Position numbers and translations under genes: made by a program. The notes under the pieces are model-generated. The model did not search any database. It was not told the origin of the DNA and was given only the letters and a program-made list of their open reading frames with translations. A DNA stretch of 5,215 bases from the IMG/VR virus record IMGVR_UViG_2778261347_000025; one strand, given 5' to 3'. Within the stretch, counting starts at the first letter, position 1. Each line of letters opens with the position of its first letter. This document shows, piece after piece, positions 1-5,215 of the stretch. This stretch comes from a virus. Its lineage: Duplodnaviria > Heunggongvirae > Uroviricota > Caudoviricetes.

Positions 1-1239
1 ATGAGCAGGGCAATTCATAGACTTAGCGACACTCTTTTACGAAAATTAAGCGGATCACCAACCACAAAAAACACCTTTTTTAATGATGGTGGCAACCTTA
101 GCGTAAGGCATTCAACCAATGGCCTGTTAACCTGGTATTTCACTTACAGGGCCGGAACAGGCAGGAAGGTAGCCCCTGAACGTCTGAGGCTGGGAAATTA
201 TCCAGATTTGAGCCTGAAAGCAGCCAGGGAAAAAGCGTCGCAGTGTCGCGCCTGGCTTGCTGAGGGGAAAAATCCACGCCATGAGCTTAATCACACCGTA
301 CAGGAAGCGTTATCACCTGTTACGGTTAAGGAAGCGCTCACTTACTGGCTTGAATCGTACGCGAAGGAAAAGCGCACAGATTACGAATCTCTGAAAAGCC
401 GGATCAATACACACATAATCAGCCATATTGGTGCTATGCCGCTGGAAAAATGCGAGCTACGCCACTGGCTGACCTGTTTTGATCAGCTTGCTATGCGTAA
501 TCCGGTATCAGCAGGATTTTTGTTACAGGTATGCAAGCAGGCGCTTAAGTACTGCCGCAAACGACGCTACGCAATTACCAACGTTCTAGATGATATGGTT
601 GTAGGTGATGTTGGGAAAAAAGCAGAAATAAGCGAGCGCGTACTAACAAACAAGGAGCTTGGGGAATTACTACGCGCCCTGGATGAAAAAATTTACACAC
701 CGTACTACAGCGCCCTGATTCGCCTCCTGATTGTCTTCGGATGCCGTACCACTGAGCTAAGACGCTCTGAGGTCCAGGAATGGGATTTTACAGAAATGCT
801 CTGGACTGTGCCGAAAGAACACAGCAAAACGAAGGTAGCAATATTCAGGCCAATACCGGAAGCGATCTTGCCGTTCGTAACGAAGCTGGTGGAGCAGAAC
901 CGACACACGGGCTTATTACTCGGAGAACTGAAAGGGCAATCATCTGTATCAGAGTACGGAAGAACGGCACACAGACGCATTAATCAAGCCCTCTGGACGT
1001 TGCACGACATCCGGCACACGTTTACAACGATGCTGAACGATTTAGGCGTGGATCCTCATGTAGTGGAGCAGCTAACCGCGCACCAGTTGCCAGGAATGCA
1101 ACGAGTCTATAATCACTCCCGTTATCTCGATGCAAAACGTGACGCTCTTAATCTATGGGTTGAGCGTCTCGAGCTTCTCCAGAACAATGATGAAAAAATC
1201 GTTGTTATGACCCCGCGAATTTACTCCCAAAATTCTTGA
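1..1239 (+). CDS. int: Tyrosine-type site-specific integrase, P4-like (412 aa)
   Basis: ORF track 1..1239. N-terminal pattern LSD..GGNLSVR..WYFTYR..LRLGNYPDLSLKAAREKA resembles the P4 integrase arm domain. C-terminal catalytic region has R in GCRTTELRR, H-x-x-R in HDIRHTF and the likely nucleophile Y in RVYNHSRY. ATG sits at window position 1, so a start further upstream cannot be excluded. Confidence 0.9.
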   Translation: MSRAIHRLSDTLLRKLSGSPTTKNTFFNDGGNLSVRHSTNGLLTWYFTYRAGTGRKVAPERLRLGNYPDLSLKAAREKASQCRAWLAEGKNPRHELNHTVQEALSPVTVKEALTYWLESYAKEKRTDYESLKSRINTHIISHIGAMPLEKCELRHWLTCFDQLAMRNPVSAGFLLQVCKQALKYCRKRRYAITNVLDDMVVGDVGKKAEISERVLTNKELGELLRALDEKIYTPYYSALIRLLIVFGCRTTELRRSEVQEWDFTEMLWTVPKEHSKTKVAIFRPIPEAILPFVTKLVEQNRHTGLLLGELKGQSSVSEYGRTAHRRINQALWTLHDIRHTFTTMLNDLGVDPHVVEQLTAHQLPGMQRVYNHSRYLDAKRDALNLWVERLELLQNNDEKIVVMTPRIYSQNS

Positions 1240-1280
1240 CAAATTACGGCTGTTTTTCTTGCGAAAAATGGCCCTCTAAA

Positions 1281-1317
1281 ATAAATCGTCGAATATCGGC
1301 AAATATCGACGATTTAT
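1281..1317. repeat. Perfect 12-bp inverted repeat ATAAATCGTCGA / TCGACGATTTAT with 13-nt spacer, 42 bp downstream of the int stop
   Basis: Read directly: 1281-1292 is the exact reverse complement of 1306-1317. The spacer contains a short direct repeat AATATCG. No U-tract follows, so it is not a clean intrinsic terminator; it may be a protein-binding site. Confidence 0.5.
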
Positions 1318-1648
1318 ATGTGTCAAGTATTGAAAAAATTTGAAATGTCTTCTTCTTAGTTCTTATTCTCTGTTTCTTGATTGTTCCAACACCTGATGGT
1401 TTATCTATTTGTTTTTAATGAGGTAATTCAGGTGTCATGCCAAATGACGACATTTTTTGTTGCGTCGCTTAAAAACTCGTGACACGATTTTAAACACTAA
1501 CGAGCTTCTACGAACCTTAGCGAACAAAGCCTTTAGCATGGTTGTGTTTTTAATTTAAGAGGTGAAAAAGAATCTAAGTAATATCCGATCTCATATATCT
1601 ACAGCTAAGATAAAAGTTTATATACGTAATTTTTATGTAGGTTTTTGT

Positions 1649-1858
1649 ATGCGTGAAATAAATGAAGATCGCGTAATCCGTGAGGATGAATGTCGTAAGT
1701 TAACTGGAGTGTGCCGCACTACACGTTACGAACTGGAGAAAAAAGGGCGCTTTCCGTCACGTCTTAATCTGGGCGGTCGTTCTGTAGGGTGGCTGCTGTC
1801 CGAGGTTATGGAATGGGTTAAAAGCAGGGATCGTATTAATTCAGGTAAGGCAGCGTAG
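1649..1858 (+). CDS. alpA: AlpA-family phage/island transcriptional regulator (69 aa)
   Basis: Sequence MREINEDRVIREDECRKLTGVCRTTRYELEKKGRFPSRLNLGGRSVGWLLSEVMEWV matches the AlpA helix-turn-helix pattern (..TG.SRST.Y.L...G.FP....LG.RSV.W...EV..W). ATG at 1649 has AGGT 6 nt upstream. The track ORF starts at GTG 1562, but that N-terminal extension is not AlpA-like and would make the protein longer than typical AlpA (about 70 aa). Confidence 0.85.
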   Translation: MREINEDRVIREDECRKLTGVCRTTRYELEKKGRFPSRLNLGGRSVGWLLSEVMEWVKSRDRINSGKAA

Positions 1859-1874
1859 GGGGAACATATGACAC

Positions 1875-1904
1875 ATAAAACAAAGGCGACCTGGGGCGGT
1901 CGCC
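1875..1904 (-). terminator. Rho-independent terminator, oriented for the minus strand (weakly bidirectional)
   Basis: GC-rich stem GGCGACC (1885-1891) / GGTCGCC (1898-1904) with a 6-nt loop. On the minus strand the stem is followed immediately by TTTGTTTTAT (1884-1875). On the plus strand, 26 nt after the alpA stop, the trailing tract is only AGTTTGG. Confidence 0.5.
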
Positions 1905-1968
1905 AGTTTGGAAACACTAAACATAAGCATGGCAATGATAGCCTCTATCAGGCTGGTGGGCAATGCTA

Positions 1969-2145
1969 TCAGTCTGTTTCAGTGCGTTGCCATAACTGCG
2001 AAGCTCTCTCCTTTGATGAGTATTCTTTAAGGTACTTCTCAAGGGCAAAAGAACACGGCGCGAATCGTTCTGATTCATGCTCTTTCTTTCTGCGTCGTCT
2101 TTTTCGTGCAGGTGATGTTTTTTCGGTTGATTCTTCGTTGGTCAT
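1969..2145 (-). CDS. Hypothetical small highly charged protein (58 aa), or the C-terminal part of a longer interrupted ORF
   Basis: Hand-translated minus-strand ORF, ATG 2145 to TGA 1969: MTNEESTEKTSPARKRRRRKKEHESERFAPCSFALEKYLKEYSSKERASQLWQRTETD. Below the 60-aa track threshold. No convincing Shine-Dalgarno. In the same frame as the upstream ORF 2382..2203. Terminator lies 64 nt downstream. Confidence 0.3.
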   Translation of the reverse strand: MTNEESTEKTSPARKRRRRKKEHESERFAPCSFALEKYLKEYSSKERASQLWQRTETD

Positions 2146-2202
2146 TGTGTGCGCCTGTAAAGCAATGCGCCGGAGTTCCTCACACCACGGCGCTGATAGT
2201 GA

Positions 2203-2382
2203 TTATTCTGATTCTTTGGCCTTGCGACGCTGGCGGCGTTTGATCTCGCCTCGCATGGCTGTAACGATAAATTGCGCAGTGCTCTCGCCTGTTTCTTTTA
2301 CTTGCTCCATAGCCTCAACAACTTCATGCGGGGCGCGAGCCTGTAATTTCTGTGATTTGTTATTGATATGGTCTCTTTCCAT
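2203..2382 (-). CDS. Small DNA-binding protein candidate with a ribbon-helix-helix-like pattern (59 aa)
   Basis: Hand-translated minus-strand ORF, ATG 2382 to TAA 2203: MERDHINNKSQKLQARAPHEVVEAMEQVKETGESTAQFIVTAMRGEIKRRQRRKAKESE. AAGGGA Shine-Dalgarno (2395-2390) 7 nt upstream of the ATG. Layout is a short basic N-terminal segment, helix, G-x-S turn, second helix with hydrophobic face, then a basic tail, as in Arc/CopG/MetJ-type RHH proteins (inferred by eye). The coding strand is purine-rich. Confidence 0.5.
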   Translation of the reverse strand: MERDHINNKSQKLQARAPHEVVEAMEQVKETGESTAQFIVTAMRGEIKRRQRRKAKESE

Positions 2383-2401
2383 TTCTGGTTCCCTTTGTGA
2401 T

Positions 2402-2483
2402 TACTGGAATCCAGTATACACGAAAAAGACCAAAACAAAACGCTTGAAGTGGATTCCACTTAGTGATTATACTGGAATCCAGT
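2402..2483. promoter_or_regulatory. Operator-like array of three palindromes sharing a TGGAWTCCA core
   Basis: Read directly: TACTGGA-A-TCCAGTA (2402-2416), AAGTGGA-T-TCCACTT (2447-2461), ACTGGA-A-TCCAGT (2471-2483). Centres at 2409, 2454 and 2477 give 45- and 23-bp spacing. Sites 1 and 3 share the upstream flank GTGATT(A). The array lies between the minus-strand ORF start (2382) and the plus-strand operon. Confidence 0.55.
2444..2473 (+). promoter_or_regulatory. Candidate sigma70 promoter for the plus-strand operon (TTGAAG -18- TATACT)
   Basis: -35-like TTGAAG (2444-2449) and -10-like TATACT (2468-2473). It overlaps palindromes 2 and 3. On the opposite strand a perfect TATAAT (reverse complement of 2466-2471) could be the -10 for the minus-strand unit. 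Hexamer matches only, no experimental support. Confidence 0.3.
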
Positions 2484-2578
2484 TGAGTGTTTATCACTCA
2501 ATGCAAACGAGGCTGAAAAGGATTGCCGTCCTTTCGCAGCCTCTGACCACCAACGATAGCGAAAGTATCGAGGTAGCT

Positions 2579-2782
2579 ATGAGAAATCATACCATACACC
2601 CGCAAGGGCGGGACTCGCACAACCTGAATAAATACATCTGGCGTTTTATCGCCCTGAGCACGGCACAACCGCGCGTGATTACCATCGAGGCCACCAGCGA
2701 ACAGGAAACGCGTCAGCAATCTCCTGATGGCTGCGTGATGGTATTCGCCGCCCGTATTCGTCAGGGGGTGTTCCATGCCTGA
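2579..2782 (+). CDS. Hypothetical small protein (67 aa), first gene of the primase operon
   Basis: ATG 2579 preceded by GAGGT (2570-2574). Translation MRNHTIHPQGRDSHNLNKYIWRFIALSTAQPRVITIEATSEQETRQQSPDGCVMVFAARIRQGVFHA, with E. coli-preferred codons (CTG, CCG, CGT, GCC, ACC). It is the 3' end of the track ORF 1868..2782. An in-frame ATG at 2501 (93 aa) lacks a ribosome-binding site. Confidence 0.5.
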   Translation: MRNHTIHPQGRDSHNLNKYIWRFIALSTAQPRVITIEATSEQETRQQSPDGCVMVFAARIRQGVFHA

Positions 2783-3095
2783 CATGACCAATTACCAGTA
2801 CCTGATTAATCCGCATTTTAACTGTGAGCATGATATTGCTAAAAAAGTTTATTCCGCTGCGGATGGGGCTACTGACAATATATCAATGGGTATTGCGTCA
2901 ATTGGTAGCCTGATGTGGCATGCGTCAGAAAATAAGGAATATGACGAAAAGACCATGCGCATTGATATGGGTAATATCGGTTTGTTACTGGCAATGCTTG
3001 GGCAGTTTGATATTTCGTTACGGTGCACCATTGAAAATGCCACAGATGCATTAAATGCCATAGAGAAAGCGAATACTGATTCAAATCGGGGATAA
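2775..3095 (+). CDS. Hypothetical acidic protein (106 aa)
   Basis: ORF track 2775..3095. AGGGGG (2763-2768) sits 6 nt upstream of ATG 2775. The start overlaps the previous stop by 8 nt (ATGCCTGA), indicating translational coupling. No family recognised by eye. Confidence 0.6.
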   Translation: MPDMTNYQYLINPHFNCEHDIAKKVYSAADGATDNISMGIASIGSLMWHASENKEYDEKTMRIDMGNIGLLLAMLGQFDISLRCTIENATDALNAIEKANTDSNRG

Positions 3096-3101
3096 ATAAT
3101 C

Positions 3102-3401
3102 ATGAGAACTTATTTATCTGGCTTGACTGCCAGCGGTTATGCACACCCCAAAATTATCCCCGGCGCTATTTATCTGGATAAGAACGGTAACAGAGTAACG
3201 GTAAAAGAACTGATGTTTGACCGTGTGTATTTTATCCGTGATGGCTATTCATTTCATAGTTCGCTGAACGTGGAGATCTTTATTAGCAGATTCAGGCGGG
3301 AAATCCCGCTTTCCAGAAATAACCATGTGTCATGTATCGATGTTGATAAAAAACTACAGGAACTGAAAAACATGATTGCCGCGTGGAGAGAGCAGAAATG
3401 A
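3102..3401 (+). CDS. Hypothetical protein (99 aa) immediately upstream of, and coupled to, the primase
   Basis: ORF track 3102..3401. GGGGA lies upstream of ATG 3102. Its TGA stop (3399-3401) overlaps the primase ATG (3398-3400) as ATGA. No family recognised by eye. Confidence 0.6.
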   Translation: MRTYLSGLTASGYAHPKIIPGAIYLDKNGNRVTVKELMFDRVYFIRDGYSFHSSLNVEIFISRFRREIPLSRNNHVSCIDVDKKLQELKNMIAAWREQK

Positions 3402-5215
3402 AAAAAGCGCCAAATTTAAAACACCAGCCACGTGACAAAATGACGGAAGTCATCATTTTTGCGGGTAGTGATGCGTGGGCACATGCGAAGCAGTGGCAGG
3501 AACAGGACGGGCGACTGGCTGGCGATAACGTGCCACCTGTCTGGCTTGGAGAGCAACAACTTGCCGAACTGGACAACCTGCAAATCGTACCGGACGGACG
3601 CTATCGCGTGCGTCTCTATCAGGCGGGGTTATTGAGTCCGGGGCTTGTTAATACCATCGGGCAGAAACTGGCAGTGGCAGGTGTCAGGGATGCTGATTAT
3701 TACCCTGAAGGAATGCACAGCCAGAAACGGGAGAACTGGCGCGAATATCTGGAACGTGAACGGGCAGAGCAGGCGGAAAAGAAAAAGGTAGTTGAACTGC
3801 CTGTAAAGAAAAAAGAGCGGGTAAAAGACGATAACGCTTCATCACTGGCGCTTAACCAGATGGGAGCAAGTCAACGCGGCGAAGTTCTCCTGGCACATTA
3901 TGGCGGTGAACTGGCGATTCATGCTGACTCTGACACTGTTCACTATTACAACGGCGTTGTATGGGAGCCAGTACAGGATAAAGAATTACAGCGAGCTATG
4001 GCACAGATTTTCATTGATGCGGAGATCAGCTATTCGCAGAACGCCATTAAATCGGCGGTCGATACCATGAAGTTAAGTTTGCCTGTAATGGGGAATACAG
4101 CCCGTAACCTGATTGGATTCAGTAACGGTGTTTTTGATACCCGGACAGGCGATTTTCGGGAGCATAACAAAAACGACTGGTTGTTAATTGCCAGTGAATT
4201 ACCTTTCAGCCCACCAGCAGAGGGGGAAACGCTGGCAACACATGCGCCGAATTTCTGGAAGTGGTTACGCCGTTCGGTGGCTGAGAATGACCGCAAGGCG
4301 GATCGCGTACTGGCTGCATTATTCATGGTGCTGGCGAACCGGTACGACTGGCAGTTATTCATTGAGGTAACAGGTCCAGGGGGAAGTGGTAAAAGCGTGA
4401 TGGCGGAGATTTGCACCATGCTGGCGGGTAAGGCCAACACGGTATCGGCAAGCATGAAGGCGCTGGAAGATGCCAGGGAACGCGCGTTAGTGGTTGGCTT
4501 TTCGCTGATTATCATGCCGGATATGACCCGTTACGCTGGTGATGGCGCAGGAATTAAGGCCATTACAGGCGGTGACAAGGTGGCAATCGACCCGAAGCAT
4601 AAAGCCCCCTACTCAACACGCATTCAGGCGGTAGTGTTGGCGGTGAACAATAACGCCATGTCATTCAGTGACCGCAGCGGGGGGATTTCACGTCGTCGGG
4701 TGATATTCAATTTTTCGGAGGTTGTACCGGAAAACGAACGCGACCCCATGCTGGCAGAAAAAATAGAAGGAGAGCTGGCGGTTGTGATTCGCCACCTGCT
4801 TACTCGTTTTTCTGACCAGGACGAAGCTAAACGCCTGCTGTATGAGCAGCAGAAATCAGAAGAAGCTCTGGTGATAAAACGCGAGGGCGATTCGCTGGTG
4901 GACTTCTGCGGCTATCTCATGTCGTCGGTAATGTGTGATGGTCTGTTAGTGGGTAATGCCGAAATTATTCCGTTCAGTCCGCGCAGGTATCTTTATCACG
5001 CCTATCTGGCATATATGAGGGCACACGGATTCGGTAAACCTGTAACACTGACGCGCTTCGGTAAAGATATGCCGGGGGCAATGGCGGAATATGGCAGGGA
5101 GTATATGAAACGGAAAACGAAGCACGGTTTGCGTTCAAATGTGACCCTGACAGAGGATTCAGAAGACTGGATGCCATCATGTGCATCGGTCACAAATGAC
5201 GATGGAAAAAATTAA
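3398..5215 (+). CDS. Replication protein: P4-family primase / SF3-helicase-type NTPase (605 aa)
   Basis: Track ORF 3383..5215 begins at a GTG; the more likely start is ATG 3398 (MKKAPNLKHQ...) with GGAGAG 7 nt upstream. Walker A GPGGSGKS at 4373-4396, followed by a hydrophobic-D segment LIIMPD (4505-4522), as in the phage/plasmid primase P4-family C-terminal domain. The N-terminal roughly 120 aa (EVIIFAGSDAW ... RDADYY) has an E...DxD pattern compatible with a small Toprim-like domain (tentative), then a K/E-rich linker. Stop TAA is at 5213-5215, the window end. Confidence 0.85.
   Translation: MKKAPNLKHQPRDKMTEVIIFAGSDAWAHAKQWQEQDGRLAGDNVPPVWLGEQQLAELDNLQIVPDGRYRVRLYQAGLLSPGLVNTIGQKLAVAGVRDADYYPEGMHSQKRENWREYLERERAEQAEKKKVVELPVKKKERVKDDNASSLALNQMGASQRGEVLLAHYGGELAIHADSDTVHYYNGVVWEPVQDKELQRAMAQIFIDAEISYSQNAIKSAVDTMKLSLPVMGNTARNLIGFSNGVFDTRTGDFREHNKNDWLLIASELPFSPPAEGETLATHAPNFWKWLRRSVAENDRKADRVLAALFMVLANRYDWQLFIEVTGPGGSGKSVMAEICTMLAGKANTVSASMKALEDARERALVVGFSLIIMPDMTRYAGDGAGIKAITGGDKVAIDPKHKAPYSTRIQAVVLAVNNNAMSFSDRSGGISRRRVIFNFSEVVPENERDPMLAEKIEGELAVVIRHLLTRFSDQDEAKRLLYEQQKSEEALVIKREGDSLVDFCGYLMSSVMCDGLLVGNAEIIPFSPRRYLYHAYLAYMRAHGFGKPVTLTRFGKDMPGAMAEYGREYMKRKTKHGLRSNVTLTEDSEDWMPSCASVTNDDGKN

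Follow-up and report, generated by a model that had tools for sequence, protein, structure and literature searches.

The phage-inducible chromosomal islands (PICIs) of Gram-negative bacteria have the gene order int, alpA, pri-rep, with a replication origin directly 3' of the replicase (Fillol-Salom 2018, ISME J; PMC6092414). In EcCICFT073, which has been characterised experimentally, the island cycle is activated by AlpA once a helper phage has induced alpA, and excision and replication require Int and Pri-Rep (PMC6092414). Two further Escherichia coli islands, EcCIIHE3034 and EcCI18098, appear in Table S1 of the same study with the att core ATGATAGTTAT at the cspD-clpS site, and marked versions of both were transferred at low frequency after mitomycin C (PMC6092414); they are named in the supplement of that paper only, and no other paper text naming them was found. 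Among the Staphylococcus aureus pathogenicity islands (SaPIs), SaPI1 and SaPIbov1 redirect packaging with a diverged small terminase subunit (TerS), and in SaPIbov5 capsid assembly is the target of Ccm, which is homologous to the helper's capsid protein (PMC6092414, PMC8569155). Here we describe a 5,215-nucleotide stretch of the IMG/VR virus record IMGVR_UViG_2778261347_000025 (the whole stretch is called the window below), which very probably carries part of a 9.1-kb E. coli PICI from the att-site group of EcCIIHE3034, namely the genes for integration, regulation and replication, with a proposed helper-driven cycle.

The window runs from the ATG of an integrase gene at its start to the stop codon of a primase gene at its end. 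When the whole window was compared by megablast with 5,426 complete E. coli genomes, it was found at 99.9% identity in E. coli O157 strain AR-0427 (NZ_CP044148), and the pig strain EC100 from China and the human strain 6883 from Idaho had it at 99.7% and 99.4%, respectively; layout and site are the same in all three genomes. It differs from AR-0427 by 3 mismatches (3003, 3059 and 3063), all inside the open reading frame (ORF) 2775-3095. AR-0427 was used as the proxy for the flanks (locus L001, where the window is 15001-20215). In this genome the window covers the left 57% of an island of 9,118 bp, and both att copies, the probable origin and the packaging module lie outside it, as the original prediction had supposed when it placed the integration site and the remaining modules beyond the window. 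It had also stated that the window alone could not separate a PICI from another integrative element with AlpA and primase genes; the flanks settle this question in favour of a PICI, with a published att core and site.

The island has int, alpA and pri-rep in the Gram-negative order, with the origin directly 3' of the replicase. It occupies a PICI att site with flanking direct repeats, at junctions confirmed by the empty site of K-12, and its size falls within the range of about 8-15 kb. TerS and one capsid homologue were the only packaging-type genes recognised. For the helper-dependent induction, packaging, high-frequency transfer and helper interference that also characterise PICIs, the indirect support consists of the circular record of a sibling island and the low-level transfer published for the islands of IHE3034 and 18098. 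The element is thus an ordinary, already catalogued kind of E. coli PICI, and what is new is this combination of modules.

Integration site and boundaries of the island

The gene order in AR-0427 is macB, cspD, yljB, then the island from int to the capsid homologue, then clpS and clpA. The island fills the space between cspD/yljB and clpS, and an imperfect direct repeat of 21 bp marks its two ends; at the empty site of K-12 this repeat reads ATAGATGATAGTTATCTATCA. Junctions were set by aligning attL and attR with this empty site (L002), where attB reads ...ACGATAGATGATAGTTATCTATCATGTGGAG.... Between the end of the attL core (ATAGATGATAGTTATtTATCA, L001 14813-14833) and window position 1 there are 167 bp, which agrees with the prediction that int would adjoin the attachment site. 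The attR core (ATAaATGATAGTTATCTATCA, L001 23931-23951) begins 3,716 bp downstream of position 5215 and provides the matching direct repeat foreseen at the far boundary; no attachment repeat was found within the window itself. Both copies share an identical 11-bp centre, ATGATAGTTAT. Strand exchange is placed inside this centre because the two core mismatches segregate as such a crossover predicts, and the predicted attP core is therefore ATAAATGATAGTTATTTATCA. From the layout of AR-0427, we expect the window to be flanked by yljB and ATAGATGATAGTTATTTATCA upstream and by ATAAATGATAGTTATCTATCA and clpS downstream.

Classical P4 has its attachment site within a tRNA-Leu gene, and a tRNA or tmRNA 3' end had been predicted just upstream of position 1. 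This expectation failed, since attB lies in the cspD-clpS intergenic region, where the core overlaps yljB, a gene of 24 codons, at its final codons and stop; yljB remains intact after integration. ARAGORN detected no tRNA or tmRNA in the window and a single tRNA over 35 kb of AR-0427, a tRNA-Ser located beyond clpA, about 3 kb past attR and 7 kb from the window. An Rfam search of the whole island and its junctions at permissive thresholds gave no tRNA-like or sRNA target at attL, attR or attB; its only matches were the cspD leader (cspA-like, below threshold) and a chance match of a miRNA model on the iteron palindromes. Integrases inserted at roxA(ycfD)-phoQ, the site of EcCICFT073, are 78% identical to this one and also have no adjoining tRNA. 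A sister island in strain O111:NM 2010C-3053 (the O111 island) lies beside tRNA-Pro, downstream of yejM. The tRNA expectation thus holds for some sister PICIs and not for the present integrase clade, and a P4-type integrase does not imply a tRNA attachment site.

Of the 5,426 complete E. coli genomes, 365 (about 7%) show a yljB-attL-int junction, so the core, arm repeats and origin described here give exact boundaries for a PICI group of that prevalence. As a side observation, cspD of AR-0427 has TAG in place of TGG at codon 8 (minus strand, L001 14573-14575), about 430 bp before the window begins, and its PGAP annotation is limited to a 57-aa fragment; cspD is intact in the other four island-bearing genomes examined, and the stop looks like a strain-specific change rather than an effect of the island.

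Organisation of attP and the excised form

Repeat blocks that are 73% identical to each other lie close to both ends of the island (L001 14912-14984 and 23798-23870). Each contains four TGTTCG-like motifs in a 10-bp phase and then a tandem pair of GGTGTAGT(T/C)AAT motifs (GGTGTAGTTAAT twice), and two extra TGTTCG copies adjoin the core on the int side. EcCIIHE3034 has equivalent blocks (L003 1877-1933 and 12188-12244). After circularisation the core would have one block on each side, at distances of about 60 and 78 bp. Such spacing is typical of arm-type sites for an integrase with an arm-binding domain, and we regard the blocks as candidate arm sites.

The sub-terminal repeat CGGTGTAGTTAATGGTGTAGTTAATT is identical to the 'att core' listed for EcCIDI14 in Table S1 of PMC6092414. 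Both in this island and in that of IHE3034 the repeat sits 60-120 bp in from either end, and crossover takes place elsewhere. Given this position, some of the published PICI 'cores' of tandem form may be arm repeats. The island at tRNA-Pro carries an analogous repeat, TTTAGTTATACG in two copies, at both ends (L008 1343 and 10635).

A circular record of 10,790 bp, deposited as a 'plasmid' (NZ_CP148328.1, L011; PLSDB, RefSeq), aligns with 94% of the window and is 92% identical to it there. It carries int, alpA, ylcI, icd-like, DUF4222 and primase genes together with a right half of another type (a complete fusion of ClpP protease and capsid, with genes for a 'tail assembly' protein and for DUF1441), and no plasmid replication or partition genes were found in the record. 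Its junction is colinear with the predicted attP (87% over 365 nt) and contains the predicted core ATAAATGATAGTTATTTATCA. No integrated copy at 100% identity was present in the complete genomes searched. The record fits a sibling island that was excised and joined at its att core.

Replication origin and packaging genes

Immediately beyond the window lie ten TGTTCACC iterons (eight of them exact), in both orientations and with an AT-rich centre (L001 20230-20450). This stretch of 220 bp begins 15 bp after the end of the window, and all of it lies within 235 bp of the primase stop codon. Judged by its sequence, the cluster is the probable replication origin of the island; PICI origins have the same iteron form and the same position 3' of the replicase (PMC6092414).

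Packaging- or interference-type genes had been predicted downstream of the primase, and they were found there. Three small ORFs of 79, 64 and 53 aa without informative matches follow the origin. Next come a TerS homologue of 162 aa (PF03592 Terminase_2; phrog_641, E=5e-44), a second 53-aa ORF, again with no informative match, and a 307-aa homologue of HK97-type capsid proteins, which scores 28.4 bits against PF05065 (cut-off 24.2) and 26.5 bits against TIGR01554 (cut-off 27.5).

The octamer AAAGTTAC is concentrated at the terS gene. Six of its seven copies in 35 kb (1.1 expected) cluster at L001 21315-21588 in a 12-bp phase: two shortly before the terS ATG, and four within terS itself (codons 58-77; three direct, one inverted), where they are translated as a KKVT repeat. 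The O111 island has conserved this cluster, which is a candidate pac site or regulator-binding site. The non-coding right end of the island (L001 23206-23462) also contains repeats spaced 219 bp apart (CGGTAACTnGnTGAACTTAAAGCAAAGCGCAAAnTTGC), and related CGGTAAC/GCCTAACCCGTTGAT repeats occur in multiple copies at the right ends of IHE3034-type islands (L003, L006).

Comparison with described islands

EcCIIHE3034 is close to this element in its left half. The integrases are 92% identical (BLASTP, 379/412), and the order int, alpA, ylcI/ynfO, icd-like, DUF4222, pri-rep is the same. The chromosomal site and the att core are shared with both EcCIIHE3034 and EcCI18098, and the sub-terminal repeats with IHE3034 as well; the published coordinates of EcCIIHE3034 agree with the core copies that we found (L003 1769-1789 and 12312-12332). 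The right halves differ. That of EcCIIHE3034, an island of 10.5 kb, encodes SSB, a 351-aa capsid protein and a head-decoration protein and has a lambda-like cosN and a 180-aa terS-like gene, whereas the present island of 9.1 kb has three small ORFs, the 162-aa Terminase_2 TerS and the 307-aa capsid homologue, without cosN.

The reverse situation is seen with the O111 island. Its packaging module is about 96% identical to that of this element and includes the small ORFs, TerS, the 53-aa ORF, the 307-aa capsid homologue and the AAAGTTAC cluster. Its integrase, in contrast, is only 23% identical, a RepA-family helicase replaces the D5-type primase, and the origin repeats are different. By site and rough size (9.3 kb) only, this island resembles the published EcCI11128.

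One left half is joined to at least three types of right half; at least three packaging modules thus share one backbone for integration and replication. TerS with the 307-aa capsid homologue is the type of this element and occurs in AR-0427, EC100 and 6883; SSB, capsid, decoration protein, cosN and the terS-like gene occur in IHE3034 and in the 95.7% relative 23CRST038; the ClpP-protease/capsid fusion, 'tail assembly' protein and DUF1441 occur in NZ_CP148328. The full right half of this element is carried by 25 genomes only. Between AR-0427 and EC100/6883 the island is 99.4-99.9% identical, compared with 98.4-98.8% for the left flank and 99.1-99.2% for the right flank. This closer identity of the island lends modest support to horizontal acquisition over purely vertical descent. 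A scan for the integrase in a collection with one genome per species returned only an unrelated Alistipes recombinase (27% identity) and was uninformative on host range.

With EcCICFT073 the element shares int, alpA, pri-rep, an origin 3' of the replicase and a non-tRNA att site. EcCICFT073, however, has no TerS homologue and is packaged in lambda-type cos fashion by a heterocomplex of Rpp and phage TerS. Here a Terminase_2 TerS is present, and no match to the lambda cosN was found in the island with up to 3 mismatches allowed. A PDB sequence search with the TerS and capsid homologues gave marginal matches to SF6-type small terminases and none to Rpp, a weak test since two Rpp candidates of IHE3034 likewise gave no match. 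A PICI of the Rpp/cos type was rejected on these grounds.

The SaPIs resemble this element in logic, SaPI1 and SaPIbov1 through a diverged island TerS and SaPIbov5 through a capsid homologue such as Ccm, with a sequence relation at family level only; they are governed by the Stl repressor, whereas the activator AlpA is found here. EcCIMP1, also considered, is a different island of 20 kb at tRNA-Thr (PMC11773190).

Candidate helper phages and proposed cycle

TerS is 47% identical over its full length to the TerS of PPompW and Shiga toxin (Stx) phages (E=1e-43). For the capsid homologue the identity is 24% across the whole capsid domain (residues 291-633) of a 645-aa phage protease-capsid fusion protein (E=8e-18); unlike this fusion, the homologue has no protease or scaffold domain. 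The nearest phage relatives of both proteins are the same phages, namely lambdoid prophages of Stx1a, Stx2c and PPompW type from enterohaemorrhagic E. coli (EHEC), in which the order of the genes is terS, terL, protease-capsid fusion, portal. This shared relationship makes these prophages the likely helpers, a proposal drawn from protein similarity that can be tested.

We propose the following cycle, modelled on EcCICFT073 and the SaPIs. A helper prophage would switch on alpA, and AlpA would activate the rightward operon. Int, possibly with AlpA, would then excise the island through the core and arm sites, and Pri-Rep would replicate the circle from the iteron origin. By the SaPI pattern, the island TerS together with the helper large terminase would package island DNA in a TerS-directed headful process, and the capsid homologue may interfere with or resize helper capsids, as Ccm does in SaPIbov5. 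We tentatively suggest, as a possibility that has more against it than for it, that the TerS and capsid module is a Ccm-like system that redirects capsids and hijacks the packaging of Stx1a/Stx2c/PPompW-type EHEC prophages. If so, this PICI variant would parasitise Shiga-toxin phages and possibly dampen their production. The module is freely swapped between islands with unrelated integrases and replicases. The literature searched contained no functional study of this module in E. coli.

Alternative explanations

The P4-type arm-binding domain of the integrase, the AlpA (Vis-like) gene and the P4-family primase could also belong to a P4-like satellite, inserted at a tRNA gene and redirecting capsids by Sid/Psu/Delta-type proteins. 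Satellites of this kind carry psu, delta and sid (and epsilon) as late genes, along with a P2-type cos site. We consider this reading very improbable. The boundaries carry no tRNA or tmRNA, and the sid/psu-like genes that the original prediction had suggested looking for did not appear, the ORFs between the primase and attR having no Pfam or PHROGs match to sid, psu, delta or other P4 late functions. Gene order and att site agree instead with published PICIs, which have only distant Int, AlpA and Pri-Rep homology in common with P4 (PMC6092414). A capsid-forming PICI or a small defective prophage making its own heads might be suspected from the capsid-family protein and the small terminase, and is less credible still. 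A capsid-forming PICI would have a complete set of head genes (capsid, protease, portal, head-tail adaptors, TerS, and TerL with HNH), and no portal, protease, terL, head-tail connector, tail or lysis genes were found in the 9.1 kb by annotation, Pfam or PHROGs, and the capsid homologue is devoid of protease and scaffold domains. The idea that the segment is borne by a plasmid or a phage draws on the circular 'plasmid' record and has a similarly negligible probability, as 2,603 of the 2,606 places matching the window in complete E. coli genomes are chromosomal, the circular record corresponds to an island closed on its att core without plasmid replication or partition genes, and the one phage record that matches does so at 79% identity and for 25% of the window. 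The earlier view of an integrative satellite, neither plasmid nor complete phage, is thereby upheld. The presence of TerS and the capsid homologue, together with the absence of sid/psu, portal, large-terminase, tail and lysis genes, thus decides for a PICI over these readings.

A decayed and immobile PICI remnant, inherited vertically at cspD-clpS, is unlikely, though it deserves more weight than the preceding explanations. It would account for the pseudogene flag on the last ORF, for the repeat-rich non-coding DNA before attR, for the very low transfer published for the islands of IHE3034 and 18098 and for the restriction of the full right half to 25 genomes. On the other side, none of the core genes is disrupted, and the two att copies and the two arm blocks have been kept. 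An O157 strain, a pig isolate from China and a human isolate from Idaho carry near-identical copies whose flanks are more diverged than the island itself, and a sibling island with an identical att system was found as a circle.

Several points weigh against a PICI with a working helper-driven cycle, which we nevertheless prefer. The context of the window is borrowed from near-identical genomes (AR-0427, EC100 and 6883), its own flanks being unseen. With 28 bits in Pfam and 24% identity, the capsid match is weak. PGAP flags the final ORF (L001 23023-23211) as a pseudogene, and the approximately 720 bp of repeat-containing non-coding DNA ahead of attR would allow for some decay. The roles of TerS and of the capsid homologue are assigned by analogy, and the helper phages are candidates only. 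Finally, NZ_CP148328 starts exactly at the core ATGATAGTTAT and could reflect assembly-graph resolution instead of a real episome.

Genes and control regions within the window

The integrase (1-1239, plus strand) is a tyrosine recombinase of 412 aa with an N-terminal arm-binding domain (PF13356 Arm-DNA-bind_3, DUF4102, E=1e-16) and a catalytic domain (PF00589 Phage_integrase, E=1.5e-17; phrog_1), and belongs to the P4/CP4-57 type. It is followed by an AT-rich spacer (1240-1648, GC about 0.35), presumed to be the alpA control region from its composition profile and a promoter scan, with a promoter-like site at 1340-1369 that is a consensus match only, no better than expected from shuffled sequence. 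The AlpA-family helix-turn-helix protein is encoded at 1649-1858 on the plus strand (PF05930, E=2.6e-16; phrog_2790, excisionase/regulator).

Two small genes run leftward beyond alpA. A terminator-like GC-rich hairpin with a T run (1885-1904, minus strand; 7-bp stem with 6 GC pairs, consensus scan only) marks the end of the pair, which consists of a 58-aa hypothetical protein (1969-2145, minus; annotated in RefSeq relatives; phrog_21027, no assigned function) and a small protein of the YlcI/YnfO family (2203-2382, minus; NF041551, 72 bits, cut-off 30; phrog_949), divergent from the replication operon. A 304-codon ORF on the plus strand (1868-2782) was dismissed as spurious, since it overlaps the two annotated minus-strand genes and has family support only for its last 67 codons, those of the Icd-like protein. 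The divergent control region (2383-2578) holds promoter-like sites, by consensus only, at 2493-2466 on the minus strand (10/12 matches) and at 2444-2473 on the plus strand; they stand back to back between the leftward ylcI/ynfO and the rightward icd-like/pri operon. The leftward YlcI/YnfO protein occupies the slot where Gram-positive PICIs carry their repressor. No repressor has been identified in Gram-negative PICIs (PMC6092414).

The rightward operon opens with the Icd-like protein (2579-2782, plus; NF033153, 64.8 bits, cut-off 25; phrog_6196; RefSeq), followed on the same strand by a conserved hypothetical protein of 106 aa (2775-3095; phrog_15327, E=3.5e-71) and a DUF4222 protein (3102-3401; PF13973, E=7e-17). 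A DUF4222 gene lies directly 5' of the replicase in IHE3034, in the O111 island and in the circular record as well. Next comes Pri-Rep (3398-5215, plus), a P4/D5-family primase of about 605 aa with a superfamily 3 (SF3) helicase (D5_N, DUF5906, Pox_D5), which matches phrog_864 at E=1e-193 and TIGR01613 with 97.6 bits, slightly below the cut-off of 108.7.

PADLOC gave no match to known defence cargo among all the small ORFs. The original prediction had placed any cargo hotspot downstream of the primase; the right halves do vary there, and this expectation is refined by a second variable interval that lies inside the window, between alpA and ylcI/ynfO (1859-2202, compared with L003 3825-4169 and L008 3376-4435). 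The slot contains the 58-aa ORF in this element, a BRO-N pseudogene in IHE3034 and at least two other small ORFs in the O111 island, and from these contents it looks like a variable or cargo slot.

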